Shown in pieces: positions 1,498 to 59,245 of a stretch of DNA of 64,000 nucleotides. A program made the position numbers and the translations under genes. Below the pieces are notes generated by a model that saw only the letters and a program-made list of their open reading frames with translations, was not told the DNA's origin and made no database searches. This stretch comes from Candidatus Tayloriibacteriota bacterium (GTDB taxonomy: Bacteria > Patescibacteriota > Minisyncoccia > Phycocordibacterales > PALSA-1337), in contig JBPOID010000003.1 of NCBI GenBank assembly GCA_052034805.1, positions 3,502 through 67,501 on the forward strand. The letters run 5' to 3'. Numbering within the stretch: the stretch's first letter is position 1; every line of letters begins with the position of its first letter.

Positions 1498-1501
1498 AAA
1501 A

Positions 1502-4756: not shown

Positions 4757-4757
4757 A

Positions 4758-8249: not shown

Positions 8250-9358
8250 AAGTAAAGATATTTACGATCGCAAATATAAGACCAGATTTTATAGAAATTC
8301 AATATGAATCGATTAAAAAGTTTCTAAAAGATAAAGACTTTGAATTTATTGTCTACAATAATTCATTTAACAATAAAAAAAGATATGAGTTAATTGAAAA
8401 TATATGTAGAAAATTGAAAATAGAAAATATAAAAGTAAATCATTATAGAGATAATAAAAATGATGCTAGTTTAATAGTAGCTGATAGTTTAAATTATATT
8501 TGGAATAAATATCTAAAATATGAAAAAGATATTTTATTGTATATCGATTCAGATATGTTCTTGATAAAAGATACATCAGTGGAAGAATTAATGAGAAATT
8601 ATGATTTCGCTTTTATATCGAACTATCGTGGCAAAGACTTTGAAATAAAGTATCCATGGACTGGTTTTATGATATTTAATATGAATACATTACCCAATCC
8701 AATAGAATTAAAATGGGATACAGGAATAATATTTGGGAATAGAGTTGATGTGGGTGGACTCAATCATTATTATCTATCAAAATATGAAAATAGGATAAGA
8801 ATATTAAATCTGGAGATGTGGACATTAAATGATATAGATTATCGTGATAATAATATTAAAAATATAAAAGGTAGTATAAATGGTAATGCTCAATTATCTT
8901 TATCTATTGATAAAGATAATAAATTGATTGAATTTAATATAAATGATATACATTTATCAAGAAATAGATTATTCCCTTATCAGAAAGAAAATGAAAAATA
9001 TGGAGAAATAGTGAAAAATAATTATATAGAATTCGAAAAATATATTAAAGATAATAATCTAAATTTCCCTAAGCCTATATATATAGATTTGATAAAGACT
9101 TATGAATCAAAATTTAATGATTGTTTTATATTACATTATAAATCAGGCAGTAATTGGTTAAACTTTTCAACAAAAGAATATAATCATAAAAAAACTGAGG
9201 CATTAGTTTATCTTATGAAAAAATTAGGTGTAAATATTACAAAAAACAATATTTATGATGATAATGATCTTTATACTGATGATAAAAAATATATTTATTC
9301 AAGTAAAATGAAATTATATAATTTATATAGAAGAATAATAAATAAAATAATAAAATGA
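8246..9358 (+). CDS. Hypothetical protein, possible GT-A-fold glycosyltransferase (DSD motif)
   Basis: Long ORF co-directional with and overlapping neighbours by 4 nt. Contains YIDSDMF, resembling a DxD motif. No confident family assignment. Confidence 0.4.
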   Translation: MKVKIFTIANIRPDFIEIQYESIKKFLKDKDFEFIVYNNSFNNKKRYELIENICRKLKIENIKVNHYRDNKNDASLIVADSLNYIWNKYLKYEKDILLYIDSDMFLIKDTSVEELMRNYDFAFISNYRGKDFEIKYPWTGFMIFNMNTLPNPIELKWDTGIIFGNRVDVGGLNHYYLSKYENRIRILNLEMWTLNDIDYRDNNIKNIKGSINGNAQLSLSIDKDNKLIEFNINDIHLSRNRLFPYQKENEKYGEIVKNNYIEFEKYIKDNNLNFPKPIYIDLIKTYESKFNDCFILHYKSGSNWLNFSTKEYNHKKTEALVYLMKKLGVNITKNNIYDDNDLYTDDKKYIYSSKMKLYNLYRRIINKIIK

Positions 9359-10152
9359 ATAAAACATACGATATATTTTCATTTTTCAATGAATTAGATA
9401 TGTTAGAAATAAGATTGAATATCTTAGATAAATTTGTAGATTATTTCGTAATAGTAGAAGCAACAGAAACATTTACAGGTCAATCAAAGCCTCTTTATTA
9501 TAAAGAAAACAAAGAGAGATTTTCTAAATGGAATCATAAAATAATACATTATATAGTAGATGATTATCCAAATGATAAAAATATATGCGAATTAGCAAAT
9601 AAAAGTCCTAATGTACCTAAAGATGGACCAATACATTGGCATAGAGAATTTTATCAAAAAGAAAGTATAAAAAAAGCACTTATAGGATTAAATGATGAGG
9701 ATGTATGTTTTGTAGGAGATGTAGATGAGATATGGAATTATAATAAAGATTATCACCTATTAGATAATGATATATTTAAATTGAGATTAGAAGTATATTC
9801 ATACTATTTCAACAATCATTCAAATGAAGAATTTGCTGGAACAATAGTTACAAAATATAAAAATATAAAAAATAATTGCTTAAATCATCTCAGAACTCAT
9901 AATTTAAAATATTTAGACAATGGTGGTTGGCATTTCACTAATATTGGTGGATTAGAACAAATAAAGAAAAAATTAAATGCTTCTTATACGGAAGATAGTT
10001 ATAATACAGAAGATGTAAGAAAAAATCTAGAAAAAAGATTGAATGAAAATAAGGATTATATGGGAAGAAAATTCAAATTCACAATAAGCGAAAAAAACCT
10101 ACCTGTGTATTTATTAGAAAATAAAGAAAAGTATAGTAAACTCTTTAAATAG
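9355..10152 (+). CDS. GT17-like (GnT-III-like) glycosyltransferase
   Basis: N-terminus DIFSFFNELDMLEIRLNIL...VIVEATETFTGQSKPLYY matches the conserved start of Glyco_transf_17 family proteins. Confidence 0.6.
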   Translation: MNKTYDIFSFFNELDMLEIRLNILDKFVDYFVIVEATETFTGQSKPLYYKENKERFSKWNHKIIHYIVDDYPNDKNICELANKSPNVPKDGPIHWHREFYQKESIKKALIGLNDEDVCFVGDVDEIWNYNKDYHLLDNDIFKLRLEVYSYYFNNHSNEEFAGTIVTKYKNIKNNCLNHLRTHNLKYLDNGGWHFTNIGGLEQIKKKLNASYTEDSYNTEDVRKNLEKRLNENKDYMGRKFKFTISEKNLPVYLLENKEKYSKLFK

Positions 10153-19789: not shown

Positions 19790-19813
19790 AGAGATAATCT
19801 AAACATTATCTCT
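19790..19813. terminator. Bidirectional hairpin at a convergent gene junction
   Basis: AGAGATAAT-ctaaac-ATTATCTCT perfect 9-bp inverted repeat lies between the stop of the + strand GMC gene (19787-89) and overlaps the stop of the - strand MTase gene (19806-08). Flanked by A/T runs. Confidence 0.5.
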
Positions 19814-20714
19814 TTAAATAAAAGACAATCATAGAGAAATCTTTTTCATTGAAAAGTCTGTTTAATGGTTTGATTAATTTATCAAAACCATATAATAAAG
19901 TATAAATTGAAAAAGAAAATATCATAAAAAGCAAATCCTTAATATTTTTATTTTTCTTATATCTTTTCAATAAATGTAAAGAACCTAATTCATAAGCGAG
20001 TCTAGGTGGCTTCAAGAAAATCTCTTTTATATTGTCGAAGCCTTTATGCTCCATAAAAAGATCGAGATTGGCTATGGAAAATTGGAAAAGATGATAAGGA
20101 GGAGTTACAGATGACCAAGGTATATTGAATAATCTATATAAAATAAATGTCGATTTTGACCATATACAATCAAGATTAGGTGTTGATATAACAATAAGAC
20201 CATTTTTCTTTAGAATTCTTTTACATTCATTTATAAAATCATGAGGAGAATTAACATGTTCTATTATATCTCCAAGAAATATAATATCGAAAAATTCATT
20301 ATCGAATTTAATATCATGCAAGAAACCATTATAAACATTTGGATTATTAGATTTGGCTATTTCTGCTGTCCTACGATTAAGTTCAATACCATAAGTATCA
20401 AAACCTCTTTTTCTAGCAAAATACATAAACTCACCACTAGAACATCCAACATCCAATAATTTACCTGAATCAAATTTATTTTTTATTATTTCTATAATTC
20501 TTTCTGTTTTTCTATCTGGATATTCTCCATAATTACCCTTTTTATTACTTTGATAACCTGATTCATAAGAATACACTTCATCTTTCAAGAATTCAGGCTT
20601 TGGTTGTGGATATACGAATACCAATGAACATGAATTACATTTATACAAATCAAAACCATCTTTCTTCATTAGAAATTCTGACTTTATATTACATATAATA
20701 CATTCTGGTTTCAT
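19806..20714 (-). CDS. SAM-dependent methyltransferase with N-terminal CxxC...CxxC zinc ribbon
   Basis: MKPECIICNIKSEF...YKCNSCSLVF zinc ribbon; LLDVGCSSGEFMYFA motif I; LKKNGLIVISTPN. Paralogous to the C-terminal half of the 25011..26588 product. Confidence 0.75.
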   Translation of the reverse strand: MKPECIICNIKSEFLMKKDGFDLYKCNSCSLVFVYPQPKPEFLKDEVYSYESGYQSNKKGNYGEYPDRKTERIIEIIKNKFDSGKLLDVGCSSGEFMYFARKRGFDTYGIELNRRTAEIAKSNNPNVYNGFLHDIKFDNEFFDIIFLGDIIEHVNSPHDFINECKRILKKNGLIVISTPNLDCIWSKSTFILYRLFNIPWSSVTPPYHLFQFSIANLDLFMEHKGFDNIKEIFLKPPRLAYELGSLHLLKRYKKNKNIKDLLFMIFSFSIYTLLYGFDKLIKPLNRLFNEKDFSMIVFYLKR

Positions 20715-20718
20715 AAAT

Positions 20719-21702
20719 CTATTCTATTATACTCATAACTCTAGATCTAGTATTATGATCCATTAAAATCTTTTCATATTCTATAATCATAGAATCTTGA
20801 TTATATGATTTTCTTATATAATCTCCTAATTCTATTAATCTTTTTTCAAATCCTTCTAAATCATTAAATTCATATATTCTACTATAATCAAAATTCTTAC
20901 CTTCTGGAGCTTTTATATCTATCTTTTCCGTAAGTAAAATACAATTATTACCCAATACTTCCCAGAATCTAGCCGTATCGAATCCACCACCACCTATAGA
21001 TATACCTATTTTTGTTCTTGCTAGAATATTATAGAATTCATCTCTACCCGCAATCTTTGTCGAATCATCAAAATTAAAACCATTGGTTCTTTTTGCCATA
21101 CAAGTAAAACCATTTTTCTTACAAAATTTTTCTAGCATAATCCTAGCCTCCTTTCTCATTTTAGGATAATCTTCTTGACCGAAGATACAAGTAAAATCAA
21201 TATCTTTTTTTATATTCTTATTAAAAAATTTTGTATATCGAGACTCAATACCGAATGGTAATGGTTTTATTCCATTTATATATGGTTTCTCTCTTCTAAA
21301 ATATGATTTGCATTTATCCAACATATCTTTATTTATTGCGCCTATACCATCATATTTACCCTCTATTATTTTATTCTGTATAACTTGATCAAATCTATTA
21401 TTCTTTCCTGTTTCAGAACCATCTATGAAAATAGTCTTATCCCATCTATTTATCTTTTCTGCCAAATCAAAATTAGTACTATTTTTACCCCAAGCTAGAA
21501 TAATAATATCTGAATCTTTTGCATATTCTATAAATTCATTATTCCCTAATATATATTTTCCAATATTAAAAGGTGTTGGATAATTATCTGTAACTCTAAA
21601 ATCAAGATAAGATTCATTTTCTAATATTATCAAACCATCTAATATGGTATTTGCTAAATAATCACTTTTAGCTATTGGTGTTATAACTGCTATTTTTTTC
21701 AT
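20719..21702 (-). CDS. Hypothetical protein within glycan cluster
   Basis: 327-aa ORF, co-directional and overlapping neighbouring GT genes by 4 nt. No recognisable motif. Confidence 0.4.
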   Translation of the reverse strand: MKKIAVITPIAKSDYLANTILDGLIILENESYLDFRVTDNYPTPFNIGKYILGNNEFIEYAKDSDIIILAWGKNSTNFDLAEKINRWDKTIFIDGSETGKNNRFDQVIQNKIIEGKYDGIGAINKDMLDKCKSYFRREKPYINGIKPLPFGIESRYTKFFNKNIKKDIDFTCIFGQEDYPKMRKEARIMLEKFCKKNGFTCMAKRTNGFNFDDSTKIAGRDEFYNILARTKIGISIGGGGFDTARFWEVLGNNCILLTEKIDIKAPEGKNFDYSRIYEFNDLEGFEKRLIELGDYIRKSYNQDSMIIEYEKILMDHNTRSRVMSIIE

Positions 21703-22826
21703 TTTTTTAATATAGATAATATAGTCTTTCTAACAGTATTTTCATGTCCAAATCTATTTTGTAGAAAAACTTTTGTATTAGATTTCATTTTATTATAAAG
21801 AGAATTATCATTCTTTAATTTTAGTATGGAATCTGATATTGCATTAGCATTTCTCTCGTCGACAACGAAACCAGTTTTACCATCTTCTATCGCTTCAGGT
21901 ATACCACCACTTCTTGTACCTATAACTGGCAGACCATACAATTGAGCTTCCAATAAAACCAAACCCAAACCTTCGAAATCACCTTCATTCTCTATAGTAT
22001 ATGATACCAAAGAACCGACTTTTGCTATGGAATAATATATAGACAGATCAGGAACTTTTCCTACAAAGATAACTCTGTCTTTTAAATCATATTTATCTTT
22101 TATTAATTCTAGATTTTTTCTCTCTGGACCATCACCAACTACAATCAATTTAATATTCTTATCCTTTATTAAAGAAATGGCTTCTATAAGATATTCCACT
22201 CCTTTTCTTTTAACCAATCTACATACCGTAACTATTACAAAATCATCATTATCTATATTCAATCTTCTCTTTTCTTCTTCTACTTTTTTATAGTCTATAT
22301 TATGAACCATATCCAATCTAGGAAGTATAGGATATATTACTTTTATATTATTTTTATTAGATAAATTATATCTCTGTATTACTTTGTTTTTTGTAAATTC
22401 ACTTATAGTTATAGCTATTGTGGCTCTTTTTATACTGAAAGATTGAAGTAATACCACTTTTCTAGTAGTACGAGTATCACAAGCATCTGCACCATAAAAT
22501 GTTATAACTGATTTTTTAAAGAAAATCTTTGACCAGAATACTGTCCAAAATCCAATAGGAAATAGATTCATAGCATAGAAATAATCAGCATTCAAATTCT
22601 TCACAAAATCCATAAAGATAATGAATCCAACATAGAAAAAGTTAACAGACCTTAAAGTCTCTAAAGATAAATTATTTATTTTTTCTTTTCTTGGATTCTT
22701 GTTGCCAAAAATCTTTACTTTACCGTTTATATCTTCTAGAGAAAAAGCATTGAGCCATTCTCTTGTATATGTGGCTATACCTCCATTTGTTGGTATATAA
22801 TCTGAACCGAAAAATATTATTTTCAT
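21699..22826 (-). CDS. GT4-family glycosyltransferase
   Basis: KRKGVEYLIEA...GLGLVLLEAQLYGLPVIGTRSGGIPEAIEDGKTGFVV. Confidence 0.85.
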   Translation of the reverse strand: MKIIFFGSDYIPTNGGIATYTREWLNAFSLEDINGKVKIFGNKNPRKEKINNLSLETLRSVNFFYVGFIIFMDFVKNLNADYFYAMNLFPIGFWTVFWSKIFFKKSVITFYGADACDTRTTRKVVLLQSFSIKRATIAITISEFTKNKVIQRYNLSNKNNIKVIYPILPRLDMVHNIDYKKVEEEKRRLNIDNDDFVIVTVCRLVKRKGVEYLIEAISLIKDKNIKLIVVGDGPERKNLELIKDKYDLKDRVIFVGKVPDLSIYYSIAKVGSLVSYTIENEGDFEGLGLVLLEAQLYGLPVIGTRSGGIPEAIEDGKTGFVVDERNANAISDSILKLKNDNSLYNKMKSNTKVFLQNRFGHENTVRKTILSILKK

Positions 22827-23962
22827 GATAATGGTTTTATAAAATCAGCTATGCCTTTCGCTCTATTTTCCCAAGTCAGACTCGATACTTTTTTTAATGC
22901 TTCACCACTAATTCTATGAGACAATTCTTCATTATTAAATAATATATGAATAGATTTAGAAAGACTTTCTATATCATTAGATTTGAAAAATACAGAATTA
23001 TTTTCATTCAATATTTCTCTTAATGAAGGTAAATCTGAAGCTACTATAGGTCTGTCACTTGCCATGTATTCGAATAATTTCAATGGTGAAGTATAAAGTC
23101 TAGAAATAATTTCTTTATCACTATTAGGCAATACTAGTACATCAGCAGATTTAAGGAATAGTGGTATTTCACTATGTTTTCTATTACCTATTATTATAAT
23201 AGTATTATTCTGAATACCTTCTCTATACTTATCTTTAAATAAAGACACATCTTGTTCTGTACCGCCCACAAATACAGCACATTCATCTTTATCAAAATAT
23301 TTCATAGCTGTATTGGCGAGAGTATCCGCACCTTTCCAATCATATAAATGACCAGAATATAAAGCTATTTTTTTATCTTTTGGTAAATTCAATATATCTC
23401 TACATATTGATTTACTTTTATTAATAGAAAACTCTTTTATATCTACAGCATCTGGAGAAATAAGGGATTTATCTTTATCTTTTAAATACTTTGAATACAG
23501 ATCAGAAAGACCTTTGCTTATTGATACCAATTTCGCCTTCTTTAATAAATTTCTAATTATAAAATTATTATTACCTTGATGAGCTTCATAAACTAGATTT
23601 GGATGAATTAAAATCATATTAAAGAGAATTATTTCATCTCTAGAATAAACAATATCTGGCTTTATTTTCCTCATTTCTATTGATACCTTCTCAGCAAAAA
23701 TCCAAGATTGCATAAGAAACCCTATTCTACCCAAAGCCAATAAATTATGAAAAATATTTATAGTCGGTATTTCTATTATCTTAAAATTATTCTTTATAGA
23801 ATAAAATTCATATGGATTATCTTTTATTTTACTCTTTCTTTTTGAAACTATCAGAGTGACCTCATGTCCCAAAGATGCAAAAGCCTCACACATTTTCATT
23901 ATCTGTATTCCATGAGCTTTCTCTGTGGGTATTCTTATATTAGCTATATAGCAGATTTTCAT
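22823..23962 (-). CDS. GT4-family glycosyltransferase
   Basis: GT-B architecture; C-terminal LKLFEYMASDRPIVASDLPSLREIL. Confidence 0.75.
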   Translation of the reverse strand: MKICYIANIRIPTEKAHGIQIMKMCEAFASLGHEVTLIVSKRKSKIKDNPYEFYSIKNNFKIIEIPTINIFHNLLALGRIGFLMQSWIFAEKVSIEMRKIKPDIVYSRDEIILFNMILIHPNLVYEAHQGNNNFIIRNLLKKAKLVSISKGLSDLYSKYLKDKDKSLISPDAVDIKEFSINKSKSICRDILNLPKDKKIALYSGHLYDWKGADTLANTAMKYFDKDECAVFVGGTEQDVSLFKDKYREGIQNNTIIIIGNRKHSEIPLFLKSADVLVLPNSDKEIISRLYTSPLKLFEYMASDRPIVASDLPSLREILNENNSVFFKSNDIESLSKSIHILFNNEELSHRISGEALKKVSSLTWENRAKGIADFIKPLS

Positions 23963-24990
23963 TATTTTGAAGTATATTTTATTATATTATCTTTCGTAAA
24001 GATAAATCTGAAAAATGAATCAATTCTTAGGTATTTTTCAAAAGCTTCCCTAGCACGTCTTTGCATATTAATCCATTCCTCATTTGAAATCTTATCATAA
24101 AAATCAGAAATTATTTTGTCTATATTTTTTATATCTTTATATGAAACTTTTATAATAAACTTTGAATAATCAATATCTTTATCCAAAGGTAATGGACAAT
24201 CTGTATCTATAAGTATTGGTATTCTACCTAGACTTAATATTTCATAAAATCTAACAGAGAAATTACCATCTCCCTTAGGGGCTAATACAAAATCACTATC
24301 TTTTATATTCTCTATATATTCATGTCTAGCCTTAATAGGATCTATGCTTATAGTATTTTTATTAGCGCTATATGATGATCTAATAATAAAGTTATTTTTT
24401 ACTAATTTGGATTTATTTAAAAGTTTAATCATTTTAATTCTAAAATAAAGACCCAATCGATGAGTACCTTTTAATATAAAAGTATTTTTAAACCAAAAAA
24501 TAATTTTATTAAAAAGACCATTAACACTAGCCCAACCACAAAAGCCGATAATGGGTATTTTTCTCTTTTCTCTATACATAATCTCATTACCATAAGACAG
24601 ATCAGTAGAATAAGCAGGCATTATTATTTCATTATCTTTTTTACGAGATAAATATTGAGACATTCTGAATATAATACTATTCGGAATATTTATATAAGAA
24701 GTAGAATCATTAGTTGAAAATATAATAATTTTTTTATTAAACTTATTAGATAAATCTACAAATTCTTTTATATAATCATCTACTTTATCTATATAATAAT
24801 AATTATGAGGAATAATAATAAAGTCACATAATTCTGGATTATCGACTATTTCTAATACAGATTTATTAAAATCATCAAAGATATCCTTATCACCAAATAC
24901 ATTATTTCTTTCTCTAAAGCCAAGATTTGGATTTAATATCTCTAAATATCTTTTATCTTTGTATAATTTACCGTAATAAACTTTTAACAT
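23962..24990 (-). CDS. Exostosin (GT47)-like glycosyltransferase domain protein
   Basis: APKGDGNFSVRFYEILSLGRIPILIDTDCPLP resembles the exostosin C-terminal block (R.YEAL..GCIPVI). Confidence 0.45.
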   Translation of the reverse strand: MLKVYYGKLYKDKRYLEILNPNLGFRERNNVFGDKDIFDDFNKSVLEIVDNPELCDFIIIPHNYYYIDKVDDYIKEFVDLSNKFNKKIIIFSTNDSTSYINIPNSIIFRMSQYLSRKKDNEIIMPAYSTDLSYGNEIMYREKRKIPIIGFCGWASVNGLFNKIIFWFKNTFILKGTHRLGLYFRIKMIKLLNKSKLVKNNFIIRSSYSANKNTISIDPIKARHEYIENIKDSDFVLAPKGDGNFSVRFYEILSLGRIPILIDTDCPLPLDKDIDYSKFIIKVSYKDIKNIDKIISDFYDKISNEEWINMQRRAREAFEKYLRIDSFFRFIFTKDNIIKYTSK

Positions 24991-25010
24991 AATTTGATTA
25001 TATTATAGAT

Positions 25011-26588
25011 TTATTTCAATTTGGCTATAATAAACATATTATCTCTTAGATTTATAGGTATGGATAAATGACCTAGTTTAGGATTCTTATTCATAAATGA
25101 AGCAATATTAAAGAAAAATCTAAATTTCAACCATTTACCAAGAGTGAGAAATACATATTCTAATGTGAATTTCTTTCCTATTGTAGTTGAAACAATAACC
25201 TCAAGACCTTCTTTATCTAGGAGTTTAGATATTGTATCTCTATTAAAATAATGAATATGTTCTGGTGGAACAATAAGATGCCATTTTTTACCTAGAATAC
25301 GAGCATAAAGACTTCCGGAATCGGGTGTATTTATTACAACAAGACCATTCTTTGTTAACATTTTCTTTGATTTATTTATAAGTATTCTAGGATCATCTAC
25401 ATGCTCTATCACATCAAGCATAGTGATAATATCAAATTTTTTATTTTTATTATCAAAATCTTCTATAGTTCCATTAAATATATTTAAACCTTTTTCAATA
25501 CCCTTTCTTGAAGCATCAGATGAAACTTCTATTCCATAGACTTCATAATCAAAATCTTTTGCAATCTTCATAAAATATCCAGTAGCGGCACCTATATCCA
25601 ATAGACTTTTATTATTTTTCTTATTCAAAATACCCTCTATTCTATTCATATAACCGACAAAGACATTCTTCATAGCTTCTTTATCCTTATCATAATCAAC
25701 ATAACCGAAACCATGCGAAGCTCCGGAAAAATAATCCTTATTGTAAATATCTTTATTATCTTTAGGTAATGGATGTATTTTCAATATTCCACATTCTTTG
25801 CATTTATATATATCATGACCATTCTTATTAGAATATTTTTTATGAATAGTTTTCTTATCACATATGAGACAATATATATCTTTTATAGGTTTACGAAAGA
25901 TAAGTCTCCAAGGAGCTTTTATACCTTCACCTATTATATGATTTGATATCTTTGATTCGCCTCCAATTCTATTTTTAAAAATAATTGGAATTTCAGTCAT
26001 TTTCGCTCCAGATTTATATAAACAATATTTCAATTCTATAAGAAAAGCATAACCAGAACTTCCAATACTATCGAGATCAATACGTCTCAATTTATCAGTA
26101 GAAATAGTACCAAAACCTGCCGTTATATCATTTAAAGGTATGCGAGTTATAGTACGAGTATACATATTACCGAAGAAACTCAATAGTCTCCTCCATAATT
26201 CCCAACCCTCTGTTCCACCACCTCTTATATATCTAGAACCAACTATAAAATCATATTTATCTCTTTTTTGAAGCATAATAGGTATATATTTCGGATCATG
26301 AGAAAAATCCGCATCCATTGTAATAACAGTAGAAACTTCAGGATTCTTTAATACTTCTATAAATGCAGATGTATAGGCCTTACCTAGTCCTTCTTTTCCC
26401 TTTCTTCTCATAATTGAGAGATTAGGGAATTCATTCATTAGTCTCTCTACTATTTTCTGTGTTCCATCTGGAGAATTATCATCAACAATCAAAATATTTA
26501 TATCTGGATTATGTTCAAAAACTTTTCTGACTATAATCTCGACGGTATCTTTTTCATTATATGTCGGTATAATAACAATATTTTTCAT
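25011..26588 (-). CDS. Fusion protein: GT2 polyprenyl-phosphate sugar synthase (DPM1/GtrB-like) + zinc ribbon + class I SAM methyltransferase
   Basis: N-terminus IVIIPTYNEKDTVEIIVRKVFEHNPDINILIVDDNSPDGTQ (DPM1-like). Middle CLICDKK...YKCKECG zinc ribbon. C-terminus LLDIGAATGYFMKIA...LTKNGLVVINTPD methyltransferase. Confidence 0.8.
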   Translation of the reverse strand: MKNIVIIPTYNEKDTVEIIVRKVFEHNPDINILIVDDNSPDGTQKIVERLMNEFPNLSIMRRKGKEGLGKAYTSAFIEVLKNPEVSTVITMDADFSHDPKYIPIMLQKRDKYDFIVGSRYIRGGGTEGWELWRRLLSFFGNMYTRTITRIPLNDITAGFGTISTDKLRRIDLDSIGSSGYAFLIELKYCLYKSGAKMTEIPIIFKNRIGGESKISNHIIGEGIKAPWRLIFRKPIKDIYCLICDKKTIHKKYSNKNGHDIYKCKECGILKIHPLPKDNKDIYNKDYFSGASHGFGYVDYDKDKEAMKNVFVGYMNRIEGILNKKNNKSLLDIGAATGYFMKIAKDFDYEVYGIEVSSDASRKGIEKGLNIFNGTIEDFDNKNKKFDIITMLDVIEHVDDPRILINKSKKMLTKNGLVVINTPDSGSLYARILGKKWHLIVPPEHIHYFNRDTISKLLDKEGLEVIVSTTIGKKFTLEYVFLTLGKWLKFRFFFNIASFMNKNPKLGHLSIPINLRDNMFIIAKLK

Positions 26589-26624
26589 AGATATTTAGAG
26601 TATAACTTATTTATCGAAAGCAAG

Positions 26625-28544
26625 CTATTTCTTCTTTAAGAATTGATATTTACCAATAGAATTATACAAAACATAGCCATTATGGCTCAATTCATTTATT
26701 GATTTTATATAATCAGGATTAGAATTTATAGCAATAATATCTGATAGTTTATTAGTTATTCTATTCAACGACTTTTCTCCAACTTTTATGGTCTCTGTAA
26801 TATCCATAAATTGTGAATAATTTTCACTCTTTATAAATGTTACAAGTTCTGGAGCTTGGTAAACAAATATTTCTTTATTTGAAGGTATTTCTCTTATAAA
26901 ATTCTCAAGTGATTTACTTTGATCACTATTTTTATAATGAGATATCCAGCTACCAAAAACTAATTGATAGAATTGCATAATTATTAAAATAATAACTATT
27001 ACTAAAGACAATATTTTGGCTTTATTATTATTTAATATATTTGTAGATAAATAATACAAATTATATGGAAGCATAATAATTGTAATAAATTCTCCCAAAA
27101 AGAAATACCTATAATAACCAACTGTGCGAAGATAAGCTAAAATTATTAGTATATTAAAAATAAATAGAATAATTTCAGATAATTTTATATTATCTTTCCT
27201 CTTTATTCTTATATATAAGACCAAGGTCCAGACAAGAGTAAGTATAAGAGTATAAATAGGTTGAACTTCTGTTATAAATCTTTTCATATTAAGGATAATA
27301 GATTTTGTCAGATCTGTACTATGAGGATTAGCATAGATAGATAATATATATCCCAATGATTCACCATGGAATTGGAATATAATCCATAAAAATATAGGGA
27401 TAATAAAAGCAATTAAACCAAAAAGAAAATTAATAATAAAGATTTTTTTATTATTTAAAATAAATATTTTATTTTTATAAAGATAATATATTAAGACAAT
27501 AAAGAAAGCCGGCAGAATCAATATAAAAATAGGTTTTGTAACTACAACAATCCCTATCAATAAAGAAGTTATAATTGTATTGAATATCTTTCTTTTATTT
27601 GTAGATACGGGATCAATATATATTCTATAAGTAAATTCTAAACTCAACATAGATAAAAATAAGAAAAATAATCCTGGAATTTCACCTAATACATTCTTTC
27701 CATGACCATAGAGTGGTGGAAAAGTTATTATTAAAAACAAAGTGATAATAGAAATCCAAATATTATTTGAAATACTTTTCCTAAACCATAATAAAGAAAA
27801 AATGATTAATAAAATTATAAAAATGACCATAACAATACGGGCGTGAAATAAATCATTAGCAAATAAATCAAAAGATATAGCTATGGGTAAGGTTACTGGA
27901 TAACTAGTGGTTACATAGCCAGAAGATACAATAGTCTGTGGATCTATACGAATACCAGAATATCCTGAAACAGAAAGATTCCTAGCTGTTTGAATGATAA
28001 TACCCTCATCCATCCATGTCGGTGGTGATTCTGTAAGATTAGAAAGAGAAAAATATAATAAGAAAATAATACCTATAGTAAATAATATTATTATAAATAT
28101 TTTTCTTAAATTATATTTAAAATCTATTGTGTTTACAGATGAATCATTTCTCTTAAATATAAATAATCTATATATGAAAAAAGATTCAATAGCGACTATT
28201 ATTCCAGAGATAATTTGAGCTATTACTACTGGTTTTAGAAACAAAAATCCATTAACTATATTAGAAGATAATAATAAATGAATTATAGTTGTATTTATAA
28301 AAACATTTATAATCGAAACAATTAAATACATTAGAGCTTGATGATGTGTTTTCCCGTGATCAGCATCTTTGAATGTCCAATATTTTTGCAGAGAAAAACT
28401 AACACCGAATGCAATAATAAAAGCAATATTAACACTTAAAATATAATGTATTCCTAAATTATCTAAAAAATGAAGAGAAATAAGATCAACGAGTGCTGCC
28501 GTTCCACCTGAAATAATATATTTAATTATAGTGAATATATCCAT
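26625..28544 (-). CDS. Fusion membrane protein: GtrA-like flippase domain + GT-C-fold (PMT/ArnT-like) polyprenyl-phosphate-sugar-dependent glycosyltransferase
   Basis: N-terminal ~130 aa IIKYIISGGTAALVDLISLHFL... with 4 TM helices matches the GtrA family. It is followed by ~500 aa with more than 10 TM helices typical of GT-C enzymes (GT39/GT83-like). Confidence 0.6.
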   Translation of the reverse strand: MDIFTIIKYIISGGTAALVDLISLHFLDNLGIHYILSVNIAFIIAFGVSFSLQKYWTFKDADHGKTHHQALMYLIVSIINVFINTTIIHLLLSSNIVNGFLFLKPVVIAQIISGIIVAIESFFIYRLFIFKRNDSSVNTIDFKYNLRKIFIIILFTIGIIFLLYFSLSNLTESPPTWMDEGIIIQTARNLSVSGYSGIRIDPQTIVSSGYVTTSYPVTLPIAISFDLFANDLFHARIVMVIFIILLIIFSLLWFRKSISNNIWISIITLFLIITFPPLYGHGKNVLGEIPGLFFLFLSMLSLEFTYRIYIDPVSTNKRKIFNTIITSLLIGIVVVTKPIFILILPAFFIVLIYYLYKNKIFILNNKKIFIINFLFGLIAFIIPIFLWIIFQFHGESLGYILSIYANPHSTDLTKSIILNMKRFITEVQPIYTLILTLVWTLVLYIRIKRKDNIKLSEIILFIFNILIILAYLRTVGYYRYFFLGEFITIIMLPYNLYYLSTNILNNNKAKILSLVIVIILIIMQFYQLVFGSWISHYKNSDQSKSLENFIREIPSNKEIFVYQAPELVTFIKSENYSQFMDITETIKVGEKSLNRITNKLSDIIAINSNPDYIKSINELSHNGYVLYNSIGKYQFLKKK

Positions 28545-28554
28545 AAATCTTATA

Positions 28555-29607
28555 TTATTCTCTAATCTTATCTGAAATATTTTTTATAAGACTTTTTGAA
28601 TTAAAATCTTTATTCACTTTATCAAATAAATATTTATTTATAGTATTATCCTTAATATCTATATAATTTGATTTCAATTCTAGTATCTTTTCTGCCAAAT
28701 CTTCTGAATTCCTATATTCAAAAATCAATTTATCATTATAATTACCAAAAATTTCCCTAAAAGTTGTATTTGATACTAATGGTAAACAAGAAGAGGCTAT
28801 ACCTTCTAAAATAACTTTATCTACCCCACCTGTTGGAGAAAGATTTATATTTATATCACTATTCCAATAATATTCTCTTATATTTTCATTTGATACCGCA
28901 TCTTTAAAGAAAATATTTTCCATTAATCTGTTTTCTTTTATTAATTTAGTCAATTCATCATAATAAATATTATCATCTGGAGTAACTCTTGGACCTATTA
29001 TATTACATATGAAATCATGATTTTGTCTCTTTAGAATTAAACATGTCTTTATCAAAGTCTCTAAATTCTTTATACGAGTTATTCTTCCAACACTCAATAT
29101 TGTAAATCTTTTATGTGGAAAATCGTCTTTCTTTTCAAATTTAGAAATATCTATACCGTGACCCATAATAGCAACTTTATTACTTTTAATATTGAAACTA
29201 TCTTTCGATGCAGTAAAGATTTTATTTGAAAAAATAGTAGCAATACGTAAACCCATACTTACAGCTCTATGTGTATACCATAAAGTTATTTTCTTTTTCC
29301 ATATTTTCCATAGAAATCCAGCTAATACAACATATATTTGATTCATATGAACGAATACCGCATCATAATTCTTTCTTTCATACCAAATATACCAATAAAA
29401 ATGTATTAAATATTGAAGTCTTGATTGTCTTTCTTCTTTTCCCAGAGATAAAACTTTTACATTAAAAGGTAAATCGGAATTACCCTTAAAAAGACATACT
29501 ACAATTACTGATTCAAAATTCTTTGAAAATTCTATAATCCAATTATGGAAAAATCCTAAAATTGGATCATCTTTATCTACTTTTTGTGTACAAATTAAAA
29601 GTTTCAT
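28555..29607 (-). CDS. GT-B-fold (GT1/GT4-like) glycosyltransferase
   Basis: Two-Rossmann-domain organisation; C-terminal ...GGVDKVILEGIASSCLPLVS. Confidence 0.6.
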   Translation of the reverse strand: MKLLICTQKVDKDDPILGFFHNWIIEFSKNFESVIVVCLFKGNSDLPFNVKVLSLGKEERQSRLQYLIHFYWYIWYERKNYDAVFVHMNQIYVVLAGFLWKIWKKKITLWYTHRAVSMGLRIATIFSNKIFTASKDSFNIKSNKVAIMGHGIDISKFEKKDDFPHKRFTILSVGRITRIKNLETLIKTCLILKRQNHDFICNIIGPRVTPDDNIYYDELTKLIKENRLMENIFFKDAVSNENIREYYWNSDININLSPTGGVDKVILEGIASSCLPLVSNTTFREIFGNYNDKLIFEYRNSEDLAEKILELKSNYIDIKDNTINKYLFDKVNKDFNSKSLIKNISDKIRE

Positions 29608-30287
29608 TATTTATTTTCAGTAATATCAAATAAATATTTATACATCTCTTCGCCACGCCATTCTTTCTGTTTCTTATCTGGATATTTGAAATCTGTATTA
29701 TTAATGGCTACCACATAAAGATGTGGAGCAATAAAACTGGCAATAGCATCTAAAAATCTATTTGAAAATATGAAAGGTCTTATAGATACAATATTCCATC
29801 CAGCAAACAATACTGTATACTTTAAAGATTCTTTAGTGAAAAAACTAATATGATTCGAAGCCAGAGTTCCTCTGAATTTCGATAATCTAATCAAAGAAGA
29901 TATTTTCGGTATAACTGGCACTCCTAATATTATAATGGTTTTGGAATCTGATATTTTCTTTAATTTTATTAAAAATGAATGCGGAGATAATAGATGTTCG
30001 AGAAGATTATTGGCCCAAATAGCTTCAAAATTATTTAATTTCAATAAAGTATTATAGTCTTCAATATTACCTTTTATTATATTTAGATTATTCTTCTTAC
30101 CATAATCAACTTCATCATCTGTAGTTGTAATACCTACACTATTTTTACCAAAACATGATAAATATTCACCGTATCCACAACCTATATCTAATACTTTCTT
30201 ATTTTTTAGATTTAATATAGATAATATTCTATTAAATACTCTTGAATTAGATACTCTTATAAATCTTTCTTTTATTTTATCATTCAT
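29607..30287 (-). CDS. Class I SAM-dependent methyltransferase
   Basis: VLDIGCGYGEYLSCF motif I, ...NNLLEHL. Confidence 0.75.
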   Translation of the reverse strand: MNDKIKERFIRVSNSRVFNRILSILNLKNKKVLDIGCGYGEYLSCFGKNSVGITTTDDEVDYGKKNNLNIIKGNIEDYNTLLKLNNFEAIWANNLLEHLLSPHSFLIKLKKISDSKTIIILGVPVIPKISSLIRLSKFRGTLASNHISFFTKESLKYTVLFAGWNIVSIRPFIFSNRFLDAIASFIAPHLYVVAINNTDFKYPDKKQKEWRGEEMYKYLFDITENK

Positions 30288-30294
30288 ATATATA

Positions 30295-31449
30295 CTATAA
30301 TAGATTAATAATCTCTCTGGCTATATTATTCGTATCAAAATCAACTATTTTTGCACCGACTTCTCTCGCAATACCGACATCAGTGGATATTATATTACAT
30401 TTTGAAGCTTCGGCTTCTTTTAGAGTCATTCCGTAGCCTTCATACCATGAAGTATTCAAGAAAATATCACATGTTTTATAATATGAAGCCAAAACGATAG
30501 GATCTTTTTGCCAATCTTCAAAGATAATAGAATCTTTTAGACCTAATTTGATTGATAATTTAATCAAATTGTCTTTTTCTTGACCATTTCCAACTATAAT
30601 AAGACCTATATTAATATTTTTATTATTAAATAGTTTTTCTTTTGCAATTTTGAAAGATTCTATAGCTCCATCTATATTTTTCTCTTTACCGAGACGAGAA
30701 ATCATAAGAATAATCTTTGAAAATTGAGGGTATTTATTATGTAAATTATTTTCAGATTTTATTTGTTCAAAAGATAAACTTTTTATACTATTTTCTCCGA
30801 TATCTATAGGTCTTACTGTTATTTTTGATTCATCAATATAATTTTTTATATATTCTTTTATCTTTTCTGATACAACTCTTACACTATCAGCTCTAGTCAA
30901 AGTATATTTTGAAATAATAGTTCTGATTTTATTCAATAGATTAAAGTTTTGGAAATATTTGCTACCTATATCAGTATGTATTTGTAATTCTAATTCAGGA
31001 GATAAACCTGTGGACTTTATCTTGTATCTATTCTTAACCAAAGTACCTACGAGACCAGTTTCAAAAGGATCTTGGCATGTTATATGGGTTATATTTCTCC
31101 TTTCTGATATAAATCTACCTAGTCTTAAAGCATTAAAAATATAACCTAATCTTGAATTAGAATTAGTAGGATATACAAAAACATTGTTAGATAATGACAT
31201 TTCTTTCCACTTATTTTCCCCAGAGTATTCCACATTATTATGGCTTTTATCCACATCATTTATAGACTTATCCACAGTTTTTCCACATTCTTTATTACAA
31301 TCAACATCATTTCCACAACTTTTCCCCTTTTTAGTAAAAACTATTATATTCACCTCTTCATAATTTTTTGCATAATCTATTTGCCTTCGTGCTACTGCAC
31401 TATTTTTATCAAAAATATTTCTATCTGTAGATATCATTAAAAGTCTCAT
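30295..31449 (-). CDS. GT4-family glycosyltransferase with Cys/Asp-rich N-domain insertion
   Basis: C-terminal YEGYGMTLKEAEASKCNIISTDVGIAREV (EX7E). Insert KSCGNDVDCNKECGKTVDKSINDVDKSHNNVEY within the N-terminal Rossmann domain. Confidence 0.7.
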   Translation of the reverse strand: MRLLMISTDRNIFDKNSAVARRQIDYAKNYEEVNIIVFTKKGKSCGNDVDCNKECGKTVDKSINDVDKSHNNVEYSGENKWKEMSLSNNVFVYPTNSNSRLGYIFNALRLGRFISERRNITHITCQDPFETGLVGTLVKNRYKIKSTGLSPELELQIHTDIGSKYFQNFNLLNKIRTIISKYTLTRADSVRVVSEKIKEYIKNYIDESKITVRPIDIGENSIKSLSFEQIKSENNLHNKYPQFSKIILMISRLGKEKNIDGAIESFKIAKEKLFNNKNINIGLIIVGNGQEKDNLIKLSIKLGLKDSIIFEDWQKDPIVLASYYKTCDIFLNTSWYEGYGMTLKEAEASKCNIISTDVGIAREVGAKIVDFDTNNIAREIINLL

Positions 31450-31452
31450 ATT

Positions 31453-32490
31453 TTATTGTTTTCTATTTATTTTATTGAAAATATCTAAAATTTCTTTGGA
31501 GATTTCGGTATATGTATGAGTAAAATTGAAATTCTTTATTTTTTCTACTTGCATATCATAATTATTTTTATCAGAAAGCCATAATACTTTTTCTCTTATA
31601 TCATTTATATCTTTTGGATTAATTGTGATAGCAATATCCTTTATTCTATTCATCAATCCATTTTCTTCTGTAATTATAAAAGGTTTATTATATTTTATTG
31701 AATCAAGAATCATATTTGGACTTATATCTCCGAGAGAAACTAGTATAACAGCATAAGAATTAGAGATTATATTCATAAAATCATCATAATCCAGACTATC
31801 TGTATTTAATATTAAACCTTTTCTTTTTATTTCTTCAGAATCAAAACTTTTTTTCAAAAGATCAATATTTTTCCATTTCAAAACTCTAGTACTTGCTATA
31901 AAATCCTTTTGATTTGGATTAAAGGACTTTTCTTTTTCTCCATATTTATTTTCTATAATAGAAATAGGTACATTTTCCAGAGAATATGGTTTCATCCATA
32001 TATTTTTCTGCCATTCTGTACTGAATATTAGATTATCTACGCGATGAAATGTCCATTTCATCAAATTAAATATTGTTTTATCTTTATTTGACCATTTTTT
32101 ACCATAATTATTATTGGAAATTTCATTTTCTTTGTAGAAATCACGCAAAAGTACTAATTCCCCTGTTCTTTCTACATAATTTTCCCATAGGAAATCACCA
32201 CCGGTTCTCATTATTATTTTTTTACCAAGAATTTTAGCTAATATAGTCGCTGGGATACCTGTACTGAATGTGTCTAAAGCAAATATGAAATCAGATTTTA
32301 TTGCTTTAGGTATTATTTTAAATAAATAGAATAAATGCCTAATAACAGTAGGTAAATTGTTTTCAATATTAAAAGTCTTTATATATACGGTATGTCCTAA
32401 TTTCTCCCATTCTGACTTTATTTGTTCGGCGTATTTAGCGGGACCACCTATAGCTGGAGGATAAATACCTGTAGCAATAAGGATTTTCAT
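31453..32490 (-). CDS. GT-B-fold glycosyltransferase (GT4-like)
   Basis: MKILIATGIYPPAIGGPAKYAEQI N-terminus typical of GT4/GT-B enzymes. Confidence 0.65.
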   Translation of the reverse strand: MKILIATGIYPPAIGGPAKYAEQIKSEWEKLGHTVYIKTFNIENNLPTVIRHLFYLFKIIPKAIKSDFIFALDTFSTGIPATILAKILGKKIIMRTGGDFLWENYVERTGELVLLRDFYKENEISNNNYGKKWSNKDKTIFNLMKWTFHRVDNLIFSTEWQKNIWMKPYSLENVPISIIENKYGEKEKSFNPNQKDFIASTRVLKWKNIDLLKKSFDSEEIKRKGLILNTDSLDYDDFMNIISNSYAVILVSLGDISPNMILDSIKYNKPFIITEENGLMNRIKDIAITINPKDINDIREKVLWLSDKNNYDMQVEKIKNFNFTHTYTEISKEILDIFNKINRKQ

Positions 32491-32514: not shown

Positions 32515-32542
32515 AAAAATAGCCTGTATTCAGGCTATTTTA
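32515..32542 (-). terminator. Rho-independent terminator downstream of groEL
   Basis: AAATAGCCTG-tatt-CAGGCTATTT 10-bp perfect stem. On the minus strand it is followed by TTTTTCTTAATTT, 26 nt after the groEL stop. Confidence 0.7.
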
Positions 32543-40270: not shown

Positions 40271-41560
40271 CTATTTTAAAGCATTATTTTCTATAATCTC
40301 TTTCTTTAAGAAGATCGAACCTATATACCTTATAAGCAATATTCCACTTGTAGATAGAAATATCCCTATAGCCCATCCAGCTATAACATCTGATGCCCAA
40401 TGAACATTGAGTATTATTCTACTTAACCCTATTAGGAATGAACATAAAAAACATAAAACTATTAATGATTCTCTTGTAATCCAATTCTTTATTTTGGGAG
40501 CTAATATATAGGCTAAAGATAAAAAGAAAGCGGCAGAGATTGCGGCGTGACCGCTAGGGAAACTTGGATCTGTTAATATTTGAAAAGCATTATTTGGTCT
40601 AGAACGTAAAAATAAGTCTTTAAGCAAAACAACAGATCCAGCTGTGGATATTACAGAAAAAAGCATTATAGCTCCCCTTCTCCATTTATGTTTATACATA
40701 AAATAAAGACCTATAACAGTGCCTATAGATATAATCGGTATTGTACCCCCGATTGTACTAATAAAATGAAATATTTTTATTGATAATTGATTCGCATACT
40801 CTACAGATAATAGATTTGCCCATATATCAAAATTCTTCATAAAAGAACTTATAGATAAACCGTCTTGTATAGTCTTTGCCAATACCCATACAGAAAGTAG
40901 ATTAAGTATTAATACAAAAATTTCATATTTTTTGAATATATGGAAACGTAAATTTACAAAACGATAACCCCATAATATAAGTATTGAAGCTATAAAAGCC
41001 ACCAAGAAAAATTCTCCGAGATATTTCGCACCTATATTATAACTAGCACCAAAGACATATCCAACCATAACAGAAAGATATACCCATAGTGAACCACCTA
41101 AAATATTATAAAACCAGAATGTTTTTGGATGTATGCCATTTGCACCTACCATATAAGGTATAAGTGGACGAGTAACCGGACTAAATTTACCTATTATAAT
41201 AGCCTTGCCTGTATGATTATCTATAATATTTTTTGCTTTATCTATATGATGTTCTTTCAGGAAAACATATTTAGTCAATCTTTGCAAAAATGGATAACCT
41301 TTTTTCTTACCAAAAAGATATCCTATTATATCTGCAATAGCCGAAGCGGTAATACATATAATTAAAACTATAAAAAGATTAAGTATTCCAAATTTTGCTA
41401 AAAATCCACTACAAATTATAGCGATATGACCAGGTATAAATGATCCTAATATAGGTAAACCTTCAAAAAAGACAATAATGAATAAAAGCCAATATCCTCC
41501 AGTAGCTATCAGTTCAGGAAAATTCTGTATAATATGCGAAAAATATGTAGTTAAATGCAT
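40271..41560 (-). CDS. DedA-family membrane domain fused to PAP2-family phosphatase (undecaprenyl-diphosphate phosphatase-like)
   Basis: N-terminal half GYWLLFIIVFFEGLPILGSFIPG (DedA/SNARE-associated). C-terminal half PSGHAAISAAFF and SRIILNVHWASDV (PAP2 motifs PSGH and SRxxxxxHxxxD). Confidence 0.8.
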   Translation of the reverse strand: MHLTTYFSHIIQNFPELIATGGYWLLFIIVFFEGLPILGSFIPGHIAIICSGFLAKFGILNLFIVLIICITASAIADIIGYLFGKKKGYPFLQRLTKYVFLKEHHIDKAKNIIDNHTGKAIIIGKFSPVTRPLIPYMVGANGIHPKTFWFYNILGGSLWVYLSVMVGYVFGASYNIGAKYLGEFFLVAFIASILILWGYRFVNLRFHIFKKYEIFVLILNLLSVWVLAKTIQDGLSISSFMKNFDIWANLLSVEYANQLSIKIFHFISTIGGTIPIISIGTVIGLYFMYKHKWRRGAIMLFSVISTAGSVVLLKDLFLRSRPNNAFQILTDPSFPSGHAAISAAFFLSLAYILAPKIKNWITRESLIVLCFLCSFLIGLSRIILNVHWASDVIAGWAIGIFLSTSGILLIRYIGSIFLKKEIIENNALK

Positions 41561-57955: not shown

Positions 57956-57979
57956 TTTCTAATAAACCTCTATTGTCAA

Positions 57980-58363: not shown

Positions 58364-58373
58364 ATTTTTTTAA

Positions 58374-58751: not shown

Positions 58752-58816
58752 AATGACAATTATAAACTATTGATAGTTATTAAAGCAAATCTATTATCCA
58801 CAAAATAGCCAGTAAA

Positions 58817-59221: not shown

Positions 59222-59245
59222 ATCTAGAGTATATCATAATTTATT

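Follow-up and report, generated by a model that had tools for sequence, protein, structure and literature searches.

Two fusion genes of a patescibacterium encode a candidate polyprenyl-phosphate-sugar glycosylation module with an attached methyltransferase

Three-component systems for extracytoplasmic glycosylation are described from phages, Shigella and Salmonella (GtrA, GtrB and a third Gtr protein) and from Gram-positive bacteria (CsbB/GtcA/YfhO and GtlA/GtcA/GtlB; PMC8035078, PMC11127046). Here we analyse a 64,000-nucleotide stretch of DNA (the window) from a Candidatus Tayloriibacteriota bacterium, an uncultivated, very small and Paceibacteria-like member of the Patescibacteria (assembly GCA_052034805.1, contig JBPOID010000003.1, positions 3,502 to 67,501), in which two adjacent minus-strand genes carry the parts of such a system. 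One joins a glycosyltransferase family 2 (GT2) synthase to a zinc ribbon and a class I methyltransferase (the latter two together termed ZnMT); the other joins a GtrA domain to a GT-C-type transferase. We give slightly better than even credence to the view that the pair constitutes a GtrA/GtrB/Gtr-type extracytoplasmic glycosylation module with methylation as a fourth activity, carried by two polypeptides. The novelty is the fused architecture of an otherwise ordinary, known three-component glycan-modification module.

Polyprenyl-phosphate monosaccharides can be tailored before flipping: ArnD deformylates undecaprenyl-phosphate-4-deoxy-4-formamido-L-arabinose (undecaprenyl-P-Ara4FN), and DprE1/E2 act on decaprenyl-phosphate-ribose. 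We know of no three-component glycosylation system described with such a donor modification. In Pyrococcus furiosus dolichyl-phosphate mannose synthase (PfDPMS), residues N248, N277, F338 and R341 were proposed in 2026 as a pocket for flipping dolichyl-phosphate mannose (Dol-P-Man; PMC12992685). The GtrA-like Pseudomonas aeruginosa protein PsPA7_6247 binds the GT-C enzyme TfpW in a bacterial two-hybrid assay (bioRxiv 10.1101/2020.04.19.049825). We found no paper on GtrA–GT-C or synthase–methyltransferase fusions, nor on the system in Patescibacteria (the Candidate Phyla Radiation, CPR), which does not prove that none exists.

Two genuine fusion genes

Both open reading frames (ORFs) are present exactly where the original prediction, made from the letters alone, had put them. 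The 639-residue gene is upstream and the 525-residue gene downstream, 36 nt apart, in AT-rich DNA (G+C ~26%).

26625..28544 (−): GtrA–GT-C fusion gene, 639 residues (ORF, eight identical contig copies, AF2 model)
25011..26588 (−): GT2 synthase–zinc ribbon–class I methyltransferase gene, 525 residues (ORF, Pfam, homologs, AF2 model)

Both fusions are genuine and not assembly artefacts. The 639-residue protein recurs unchanged on eight contigs drawn from ENA, Logan and NCBI assemblies, and because these were assembled independently the GtrA–GT-C fusion is taken as real. The 525-residue protein has a 100% identical public entry (P0121) and more than 75 full-length homologs (77 aligned). The exact proteins and many homologs are already public, though uncharacterised, under generic names ('GtrA family protein' and 'bifunctional glycosyltransferase/class I SAM-dependent methyltransferase').

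The closest relative is 60% identical in the GT-C part and 71% identical in GtrA, which is free-standing there (locus L005; L and P numbers are our handles for loci and proteins). Its gene order is GtrA / GT-C / GT2–ZnMT, with gtrA a separate 152-residue gene whose stop overlaps the GT-C start codon by 14 nt. The L005 junction reads AAATGAATCTAATTAAG (GtrA ending ...NESN and stop, GT-C beginning MNLIKKY...); in the window the junction is open throughout (...KYNLRKIF...), the former start Met being Tyr. By this comparison, the linker goes back to what had been the C-terminal tail of GtrA, together with the overlap between the genes. Because the L005 stop/start overlap is read through in the window, the GtrA–GT-C gene must have arisen recently, when two overlapping genes merged.

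More distant lineages have GtrA–GT-C fusions of their own, with GtrA domains only 32–55% identical to that of the window (41–55% in the fused P0008, P0014, P0017 and P0018, among the top 20 homologs). About six clusters at 50% identity span the GtrA/GT-C junction among 1.84 billion representatives; the fusion recurs but is the rarer form. Nor are the fusions fixed in the lineage: the GtrA/GT-C pair is split in the nearest relatives, and GT2 and ZnMT are two overlapping genes in most species representatives. Looking for the same fusions elsewhere, as had been recommended, thus turned up independent GtrA–GT-C fusions as well as the GT2–ZnMT homologs.

The split relatives also invite the suspicion that the true genes are separate here and were joined through faulty assembly, a spurious frameshift or an ORF called wrongly, since with ends overlapping by 14 nt one indel error could mimic a fusion. 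Against this, the window junction differs from that of the split relative at many positions rather than by a single indel, the distant lineages hold independent fusions and the GT2–ZnMT homologs are full length. With the eight contigs, these differences led us to reject an artefact; the explanation is effectively refuted and we allow it next to no probability.

A synthase fused to a zinc-ribbon methyltransferase

The 525-residue protein divides into the following parts:

25893..26588 (−): GT2 (GT-A fold) polyprenyl-phosphate sugar synthase domain, residues 1–232 (PF00535, 5mlz match, Foldseek)
26307..26315 (−): D92-A93-D94, DXD metal/nucleotide-sugar motif of GT2 (conservation in 78 sequences)
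25773..25883 (−): four-cysteine zinc ribbon, residues 236–272, with C240, C243, C263 and C266 (Cys conservation, AF2 β-hairpins, paralog)
25194..25622 (−): class I S-adenosylmethionine (SAM)-dependent methyltransferase core, residues 323–465 (PF13489, PDB profile matches, invariants)
25014..25169 (−): C-terminal tail of the methyltransferase half, residues 474–525 (AF2 secondary structure, hydrophobicity and moment, conservation)

The N-terminal domain matches Glycos_transf_2 (PF00535, residues 5–146, E 9e-26), and the best PDB sequence match is PfDPMS (5mlz, residues 1–230, E 1e-26). An AF2 model from 78 homologs (predicted local distance difference test (pLDDT) 93.2, predicted template modelling score (pTM) 0.77) places the GT2 domain on 5mlz by Foldseek (E 5.6e-18, 28% identity, root-mean-square deviation (RMSD) 2.6 Å), with ArnC and GtrB next; these fold matches are all polyprenyl-phosphate sugar synthases. 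D92 and D94 are invariant in 78 sequences and A93 is kept in at least 90%. The proposed DPM1/GtrB-like synthase is thus borne out by family model, sequence match, fold and conserved aspartates. No transmembrane (TM) helix is present in the model; two conserved amphipathic interface-type helices (127–148 and 216–231) are positioned like the interface helices of DPMS and GtrB.

The zinc ribbon is real: C240, C243 and C266 are invariant in 78 homologs, C263 is conserved in at least 90%, and the model has β-strands and hairpins at this site. It is followed by Methyltransf_23 (PF13489, residues 323–465, E 8e-29), in which SAM motif I (D331-x-G333-A-A335-T-G337), D392 and E395-H396 are the invariants of the 78-sequence alignment. 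The cysteines, the Pfam match and the model together confirm the predicted zinc ribbon and class I methyltransferase. The C terminus forms two hydrophobic, aromatic-rich helices (476–487 and 490–501), with K472, F474 and Y478 conserved in the tail region; it may be a membrane-interface element.

A ZnMT profile, built from the fusion half and free-standing homologs of ~296 residues and searched against the PDB, finds three uncharacterised methyltransferase structures first (3cc8, E 4e-21) and later TcaB9 (its residues 87–253, E 1.3e-11) and KijD1 (E 1.3e-10). Enzymes of this type are also among the best Foldseek matches of the 525-residue model. The likeness is weak (11–15% identity) and is a lead on substrate class, not family membership.

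A free-standing zinc-ribbon plus Methyltransf_23 paralog (19806..20714, −) is the last gene of the same operon and is 31% identical to the fusion half, ribbon included. Several relatives have a similar methyltransferase between the genes for a 327-residue protein and a GT47-like protein, both described below.

GtrA fused to a divergent GT-C enzyme

The 639-residue protein comprises:

28155..28544 (−): GtrA-family four-helix TM domain, residues 1–130 (PF04138, L005 identity, profile, Foldseek)
28128..28154 (−): predicted basic cytoplasmic linker, residues ~131–139 (DNA/protein junction comparison with L005)
26937..28127 (−): GT-C transmembrane core, residues 140–536 (Foldseek GT-C matches, homologs' PF13231/PF02366)
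28002..28010 (−): D179-E180-G181, predicted start of the first extracytoplasmic loop (conservation, AF2 position)
26628..26936 (−): predicted C-terminal extracytoplasmic α/β domain of GT-C, residues 537–639 (AF2 secondary structure, pLDDT >94)

The N-terminal domain has the four helices of a GtrA protein in the AF2 model and matches GtrA_DPMS_TM (PF04138, residues 8–130) at 67.1 bits against a cut-off of 26.1, in agreement with the predicted GtrA-like domain. Its motifs are S12-G13, L52-Q53-K54-x-W56-T57-F58, Q69 and N84. A profile of fused and free homologs matches the TM domain of PfDPMS (E 1.2e-6), with a WTFKD motif in common, and Foldseek superimposes the domain on 5mlz (24% identity, RMSD 3.3 Å over 131 columns). 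Although the two are homologous, we did not assign the domain to the PfDPMS 'flipping' type; because the flipping-pocket residues are mostly unconserved, it appears to be of the classical GtrA type rather than the type III DPMS variety.

Residues ~135–639 have no direct match in Pfam (even at E ≤ 10), NCBIfam or PDB sequence searches; neither a 118-sequence profile of the GT-C part nor phmmer found a PDB sequence. The part scores above no gathering threshold for PF13231 or PF02366, and its CAZy family (GT39/GT83-like) is not assignable. Its homologs at E 1e-75 to 1e-125 do carry these domains, mostly PF13231 (PMT_2) and some PF02366 (PMT), in 84 of the 120 listed. In the AF2 model of the whole protein (pLDDT 92.6, pTM 0.87), the top 17 Foldseek matches are all GT-C enzymes (ArnT 5f15, E 1.9e-7, then ALG12, DPY19, AglB, PglB, STT3 and Pmt4 among them).

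GT-C enzymes keep a catalytic acidic motif directly after the first GT-C helix. D179-E180-G181, which like R236 and K337 does not vary across 118 sequences, directly follows TM helix 140–167 in the model and is the putative equivalent. Given the PMT_2/PMT domains of the homologs, the GT-C-only top fold matches and the invariant motif at the expected place, the GT-C assignment looks secure despite the lack of a direct family-model match, and the part is a divergent relative of PMT_2-type enzymes that escapes curated models. The large GT-C transferase of the original prediction is supported in this way by homologs and predicted fold; the PMT/PMT_2 search that it proposed fails for the window protein and succeeds for the homologs. 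Neither an N terminus unlike GtrA nor a C terminus foreign to every GT-C family was found.

In the modelled order, four GtrA helices lead through the basic linker, with two Lys/Arg, into a first GT-C helix running outward. This fits a self-consistent topology in which the GtrA C terminus and linker would be cytoplasmic and D179-E180 outside.

Linkage of the parts across relatives

We mapped the domains onto the ORFs of 78 loci from species-representative genomes, 76 of which have GT-C. Nearly all are labelled Patescibacteria, Parcubacteria or Paceibacteria; the weakest, partial match (L083) is labelled Bacteroidota. Many TPA_asm metagenome-assembled genomes (in L006–L083) with a Paceibacteria-type cluster are recorded as 'uncultured Candidatus Saccharibacteria' or 'Gammaproteobacteria', and these labels look unreliable.

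An orthologous GT2 lies within 6 kb in 32 of the 76 GT-C loci; more distant GT-C loci have a different, weaker-matching GT2 without a methyltransferase. Wherever ZnMT occurs (at least 150 bits), it is fused to the orthologous GT2 (5 cases) or directly adjacent to it (21), which accounts for 26 of 26 occurrences; in L017 the pair lies in different frames with an overlap of 25 nt. Four loci (L020, L030, L048 and L076) have the orthologous GT2 and no adjacent ZnMT of at least 150 bits, and L009 ends inside the ZnMT region. The arrangements seen are as follows (a dash marks a fusion, a slash separate genes):

GtrA–GT-C / GT2–ZnMT: this window
GtrA / GT-C / GT2–ZnMT: L006
GtrA–GT4 / GT-C / GT2–ZnMT: L007, L008
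GT-C / GtrA / GT2 / ZnMT: L028, L037, L047, L062; L042 and L059 with ~1 kb between GtrA and GT2
GT2–GtrA / GT-C: L016
GT-C–GT2 / ZnMT: L085 (P0217)
GT2–GtrA–ZnMT: L084 (P0165), flanked by two unannotated proteins with nine hydrophobic (TM-like) segments each

Further candidate fusions have an N-terminal extension of ~240 residues before GT-C (P0266, P0284, P0290, P0300, P0319 and P0350) or GtrA at the C terminus (P0342 and P0345), both as judged from length and match position only; GT2 plus PMT_2 proteins of comparable size are confirmed by Pfam (P0098 and P0217). The conserved gene order and the same domains in other fusion permutations constitute Rosetta-stone evidence that strongly supports one functional unit, as would be expected if a single GtrABC-type module, the central claim of the original prediction, had been packed into two polypeptides. 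Most notable are the near-obligate pairing of synthase with methyltransferase and the promiscuous fusions of GtrA.

The large proteins flanking the L084 and L085 fusions (L084 4150..5988 and 7992..9737; L085 9001..10764) have 581–612 residues, 9–10 hydrophobic (TM-like) segments and no Pfam match. Two of them have the N-terminal motif '...DDLYYYARxKEV..G.PFIGNPYF' in common, and they are possibly another unrecognised GT-C-like family.

In L007 (4515..6002) and L008 (hit 4475..4855, frame 4460..5935), GtrA is fused N-terminally to a GT4 orthologous to window gene 28555..29607; the next gene downstream is an unfused GT-C, 56% and 46% identical, respectively, to the window's. Such a fusion seems hard to reconcile with GtrA being solely a flippase, the activity proposed for GtrA proteins. 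It is possible, if less than even in probability, that GtrA is mainly a membrane anchor or hub, docking the TM-less GT2–ZnMT protein (GT4 in relatives) beside GT-C as the TM domain does in type III DPMS, while another protein or GT-C itself would translocate the sugar. The GT2–ZnMT protein lacks a TM helix, whereas its closest solved homolog, PfDPMS, has a GtrA-like TM domain; one GtrA subfamily is fused variously to GT2 (L016, P0165), GT4 (L007, L008) and GT-C; and a GtrA-like protein has been proposed as the hub of the TfpW system (bioRxiv 10.1101/2020.04.19.049825). By analogy only, being of a different family, the small membrane partner GacJ stimulates the GT2 synthase GacI (bioRxiv 10.1101/180810); Rv3632 and GacJ belong to DUF2304 and not to the GtrA family, as the paper shows. 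However, GtrA proteins are genetically required in many systems and generally assigned the flippase step (PMC8035078), and in one crystal state of PfDPMS the GtrA-like domain holds Dol-P-Man head-down (PMC12992685). One role does not preclude the other.

Proposed route of the sugar

The homologies suggest four steps. First, the TM-less GT2, sitting on the cytoplasmic face of the membrane through its amphipathic interface helices, would use D92-A-D94 to put a hexose-type sugar from a nucleotide sugar onto polyprenyl phosphate. Second, and this is the weakest step, the fused zinc-ribbon methyltransferase would methylate the sugar while it is still phosphate-linked, either as the nucleoside diphosphate (NDP)-sugar donor or, more likely, as the polyprenyl-phosphate-sugar product, so that the lipid donor carries a methyl-sugar. 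Third, as its family suggests, GtrA would move or hand the lipid-linked sugar across the membrane, and fusion to GT-C would deliver the donor directly to the transferase. Fourth, to judge from fold and conserved motif, GT-C would pass the sugar to an extracytoplasmic acceptor, most likely a glycan or glycolipid that the operon's GT4, GT47-like and methyltransferase enzymes assemble. The fusions themselves would be recent, recurrent mergers of adjacent, overlapping genes.

Action of the methyltransferase at the phosphate-linked stage is likely because the enzyme hardly ever occurs apart from the synthase and the characterised enzymes closest to it use nucleotide-linked sugars. By analogy, ArnD would be the closest precedent for such a methylation. 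We tentatively propose, knowing that it may well prove otherwise, that the synthase–methyltransferase pair makes a methylated polyprenyl-phosphate-sugar before the crossing, and that the roving GtrA may be the hub that assembles synthase, methyltransferase and transferase.

In O-antigen systems, terminal caps (methyl groups, for example) are recognised by the Wzt_C domain, and the window encodes a Wzt ABC-transporter ATPase with this domain. The methyltransferase might accordingly decorate a finished glycan, for example with a terminating or decorating O-methyl group, or act on some other molecule, its pairing with GT2 serving co-expression or membrane localisation. We regard this as plausible but unlikely. 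It is favoured by three other methyltransferases in the operon, among them the zinc-ribbon paralog not beside a synthase, by the four loci with GT2 and no adjacent ZnMT, and by the lack of a recognisable sugar-nucleotide-binding C-terminal domain. It sits poorly with ZnMT fused or adjacent to GT2 at every occurrence in the species sample, with overlapping stop and start codons that suggest translational coupling, with a fusion that arose in several arrangements (GT2–ZnMT and GT2–GtrA–ZnMT) and with closest characterised relatives that use NDP-sugars.

Several of these observations also weigh against the four-step module as a whole. The roles of synthase, methyltransferase, GtrA and GT-C are assigned from homology for every member, and the GT-C part lacks a direct match in Pfam, NCBIfam or the PDB. 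The identity of the sugar is not readable from sequence, the best match, DPMS, being only 28% identical. Methylation is dispensable or done elsewhere where the orthologous GT2 stands without an adjacent ZnMT (the same four loci, L009 being incomplete); the operon has its three further methyltransferases; and the fused one lacks the C-terminal sugar-binding domain of TcaB9-type enzymes. As for the crossing, the PfDPMS flipping-pocket residues are mostly not conserved in the window's GtrA, and with GtrA also fused to a soluble-type GT4, a scaffold role fits better than that of a pure flippase.

Operon context and the likely acceptor

The two genes belong to a longer run:

19806..32490 (−): eleven co-directional, tightly packed glycan-assembly genes (ORFs, Pfam, hairpin, relatives' order)

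Beginning at 32490, after a terminator-like hairpin (32541..32516) that lies downstream of groEL and separates it from the array, the order is a 345-residue protein, GT4, a methyltransferase, GT4, GtrA–GT-C, GT2–ZnMT, a GT47-like gene, two more GT4 genes, a 327-residue protein and the zinc-ribbon methyltransferase paralog. Gaps are −4 to +36 nt, and the array order is kept in relatives. A promoter scan found 102 sites against 121 expected, the AT-rich DNA making it uninformative. The 327-residue protein (20719..21702, −) has no family match, and the gene at 23962..24990 (−) encodes the GT47/exostosin-like protein. Many Paceibacteria genomes conserve a '327-residue / GT47-like / GT-C' unit, even those whose GtrA and GT2 are located elsewhere (L009–L012, L015, L020, L033, L043, L048, L065, L071, L076 and L077).

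Upstream lies an island for an ABC-transporter-dependent glycan, with Wzt/Wzt_C, carbamoyltransferase, GT11 and GT17 enzymes and dTDP-sugar genes. A trio within it (235..6581) suggests a glycan of this kind with terminal modifications: the Wzt-type ATPase with its cap-recognition domain (235..1497, +), a 1,084-residue GT2–DUF5672–FkbM methyltransferase protein (1502..4756, +) and the carbamoyltransferase (4758..6581, +).

The original prediction had offered Ser/Thr-rich surface proteins or lipids as acceptors. A block of secreted-looking proteins does lie at 53348..63796 (−), the one at 53348..54610 having a Cohesin domain. Two without family match are Ser/Thr-rich (56588..57955, 21% S+T; 59246..63796, 1,516 residues, 23% S+T, up to 50% within a 60-residue window), and GT-C could be a protein O-glycosyltransferase acting on them, like PMT or streptococcal PgtC2/PgfM1. 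The PMT_2 and PMT domains of its homologs would agree with this, as would the streptococcal GtrB plus GT-C that glycosylates Ser/Thr-rich regions (PMC11092751). Yet these candidate acceptors are ~30 kb distant with unrelated housekeeping genes between; we found no linkage to the module and, in Pfam, no informative domains in them. The genes around the module form a conserved array for cytoplasmic GT4 and GT47-like enzymes and methyltransferases, and many genomes keep the '327-residue / GT47-like / GT-C' unit, as glycan assembly would lead one to expect; in structure GT-C comes closest to the lipid-A-modifying ArnT and not to Pmt, and PMT_2 is not specific for protein acceptors. We consider protein O-glycosylation improbable. 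Of the two proposed acceptors, the Ser/Thr-rich proteins have only their presence in their favour, while the operon points at least equally to a glycan or glycolipid. Taken with its GT4s, GT47-like enzyme, 327-residue protein and methyltransferases and the Wzt ABC island, the context favours the latter.

One more gene of the window touches the lipid carrier. The DedA family is proposed to recycle undecaprenyl phosphate, and some PAP2 enzymes are undecaprenyl-pyrophosphate phosphatases. A 429-residue protein (40271..41560, −) has both a VTT/DedA domain (residues 42–168, E 9e-17) and a PAP2 domain (residues 297–405, E 6e-21), and may be another case in this genome where successive steps of the lipid-carrier cycle are fused.

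Comparison with known systems

The system is unsurprising in a cell whose surface glycan is elaborate. If the proposed module is correct, envelope decoration in Patescibacteria follows the lipid-carrier route used by other bacteria but departs from it in two respects. Coupling a methyltransferase to donor synthesis would be a new route to methylated surface sugars, with methylation on the carrier and not on the finished polymer. The fusions of GtrA with transferase, synthase or cytoplasmic GT4 are evidence of physical contact between GtrA and its partner enzymes and bear on the long-standing question whether proteins of the GtrA type act as flippases, as scaffolds or in both roles. Should GtrA prove a hub, this would give a handle on how polyprenyl-phosphate monosaccharides are handed across the membrane, and single-chain GtrA–GT-C proteins would be attractive structural targets for donor hand-over.

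The locus resembles the three-component systems in combining, in one neighbourhood, a GT2 polyprenyl-phosphate-sugar synthase, a small GtrA TM module and a GT-C enzyme with an outward acidic motif. To the extent that sequence can test them, all the defining features of a GtrABC-type system appear to be present: a DXD-bearing GT2, a GtrA module, a GT-C with an acidic motif in its predicted first loop, and genetic linkage. It differs from them in the covalent fusion of GtrA to GT-C, in a synthase without TM helices that carries the zinc-ribbon methyltransferase (in relatives, the next gene) and in a GT-C without a direct match to a curated family model.

The Arn pathway offers a comparable set of parts, with a GT2 (ArnC, among the top fold matches), a GT-C (ArnT, the best fold match) and the small-TM flippase pair ArnE/F as counterpart to the GtrA module. 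Here tailoring would be methylation and not deformylation, the parts are fused, sugar and acceptor differ, and the organism, a monoderm-type member of the CPR, has no lipid A.

The methyltransferase half resembles the NDP-sugar C3-methyltransferases TcaB9, KijD1 and MtmC (3ndi, 5t64 and 4rv9) in coupling an N-terminal four-cysteine zinc domain to a class I methyltransferase, and these are its closest functionally characterised relatives by profile. Set against this are the low identity, an RMSD of 7–9 Å and a match to Methyltransf_23 instead of the C-methyltransferase Pfam families. The large (~160-residue) C-terminal sugar-nucleotide-binding domain of TcaB9 and KijD1 is missing, only ~55 residues following the core, and no Pfam family for it was found in 33 members; membership of the TcaB9-type C-methyltransferases was rejected for this reason.

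The GT2 domain matches type III PfDPMS (5mlz, 9ep0; PMC5526996, PMC12992685) best, in sequence as in structure, and the four-helix GtrA-like TM domain of PfDPMS is homologous to the window's GtrA. Relatives L016 and P0165 have a PfDPMS-like single chain of GT2 and GtrA; in the window, unlike in PfDPMS, it is the neighbouring GT-C protein that bears the TM domain. With residues matched by profile alignment to 5mlz (chain number minus 22 gives the native number), the pocket and gate residues N277, F338 and R341 are replaced by Ser, Ala and Glu/Ser, and N248 is Asn in most fused homologs and Asp in the window. With the TM domain on another chain and the pocket residues absent, membership of the type III DPMS enzymes was rejected.

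PsPA7_6247 and TfpW differ from the window's proteins in being separate and in serving a pentofuranose (D-Araf) pathway with pilin as acceptor. They provide the case in which GtrA and GT-C associate physically; the covalent fusion described here would make that association permanent.

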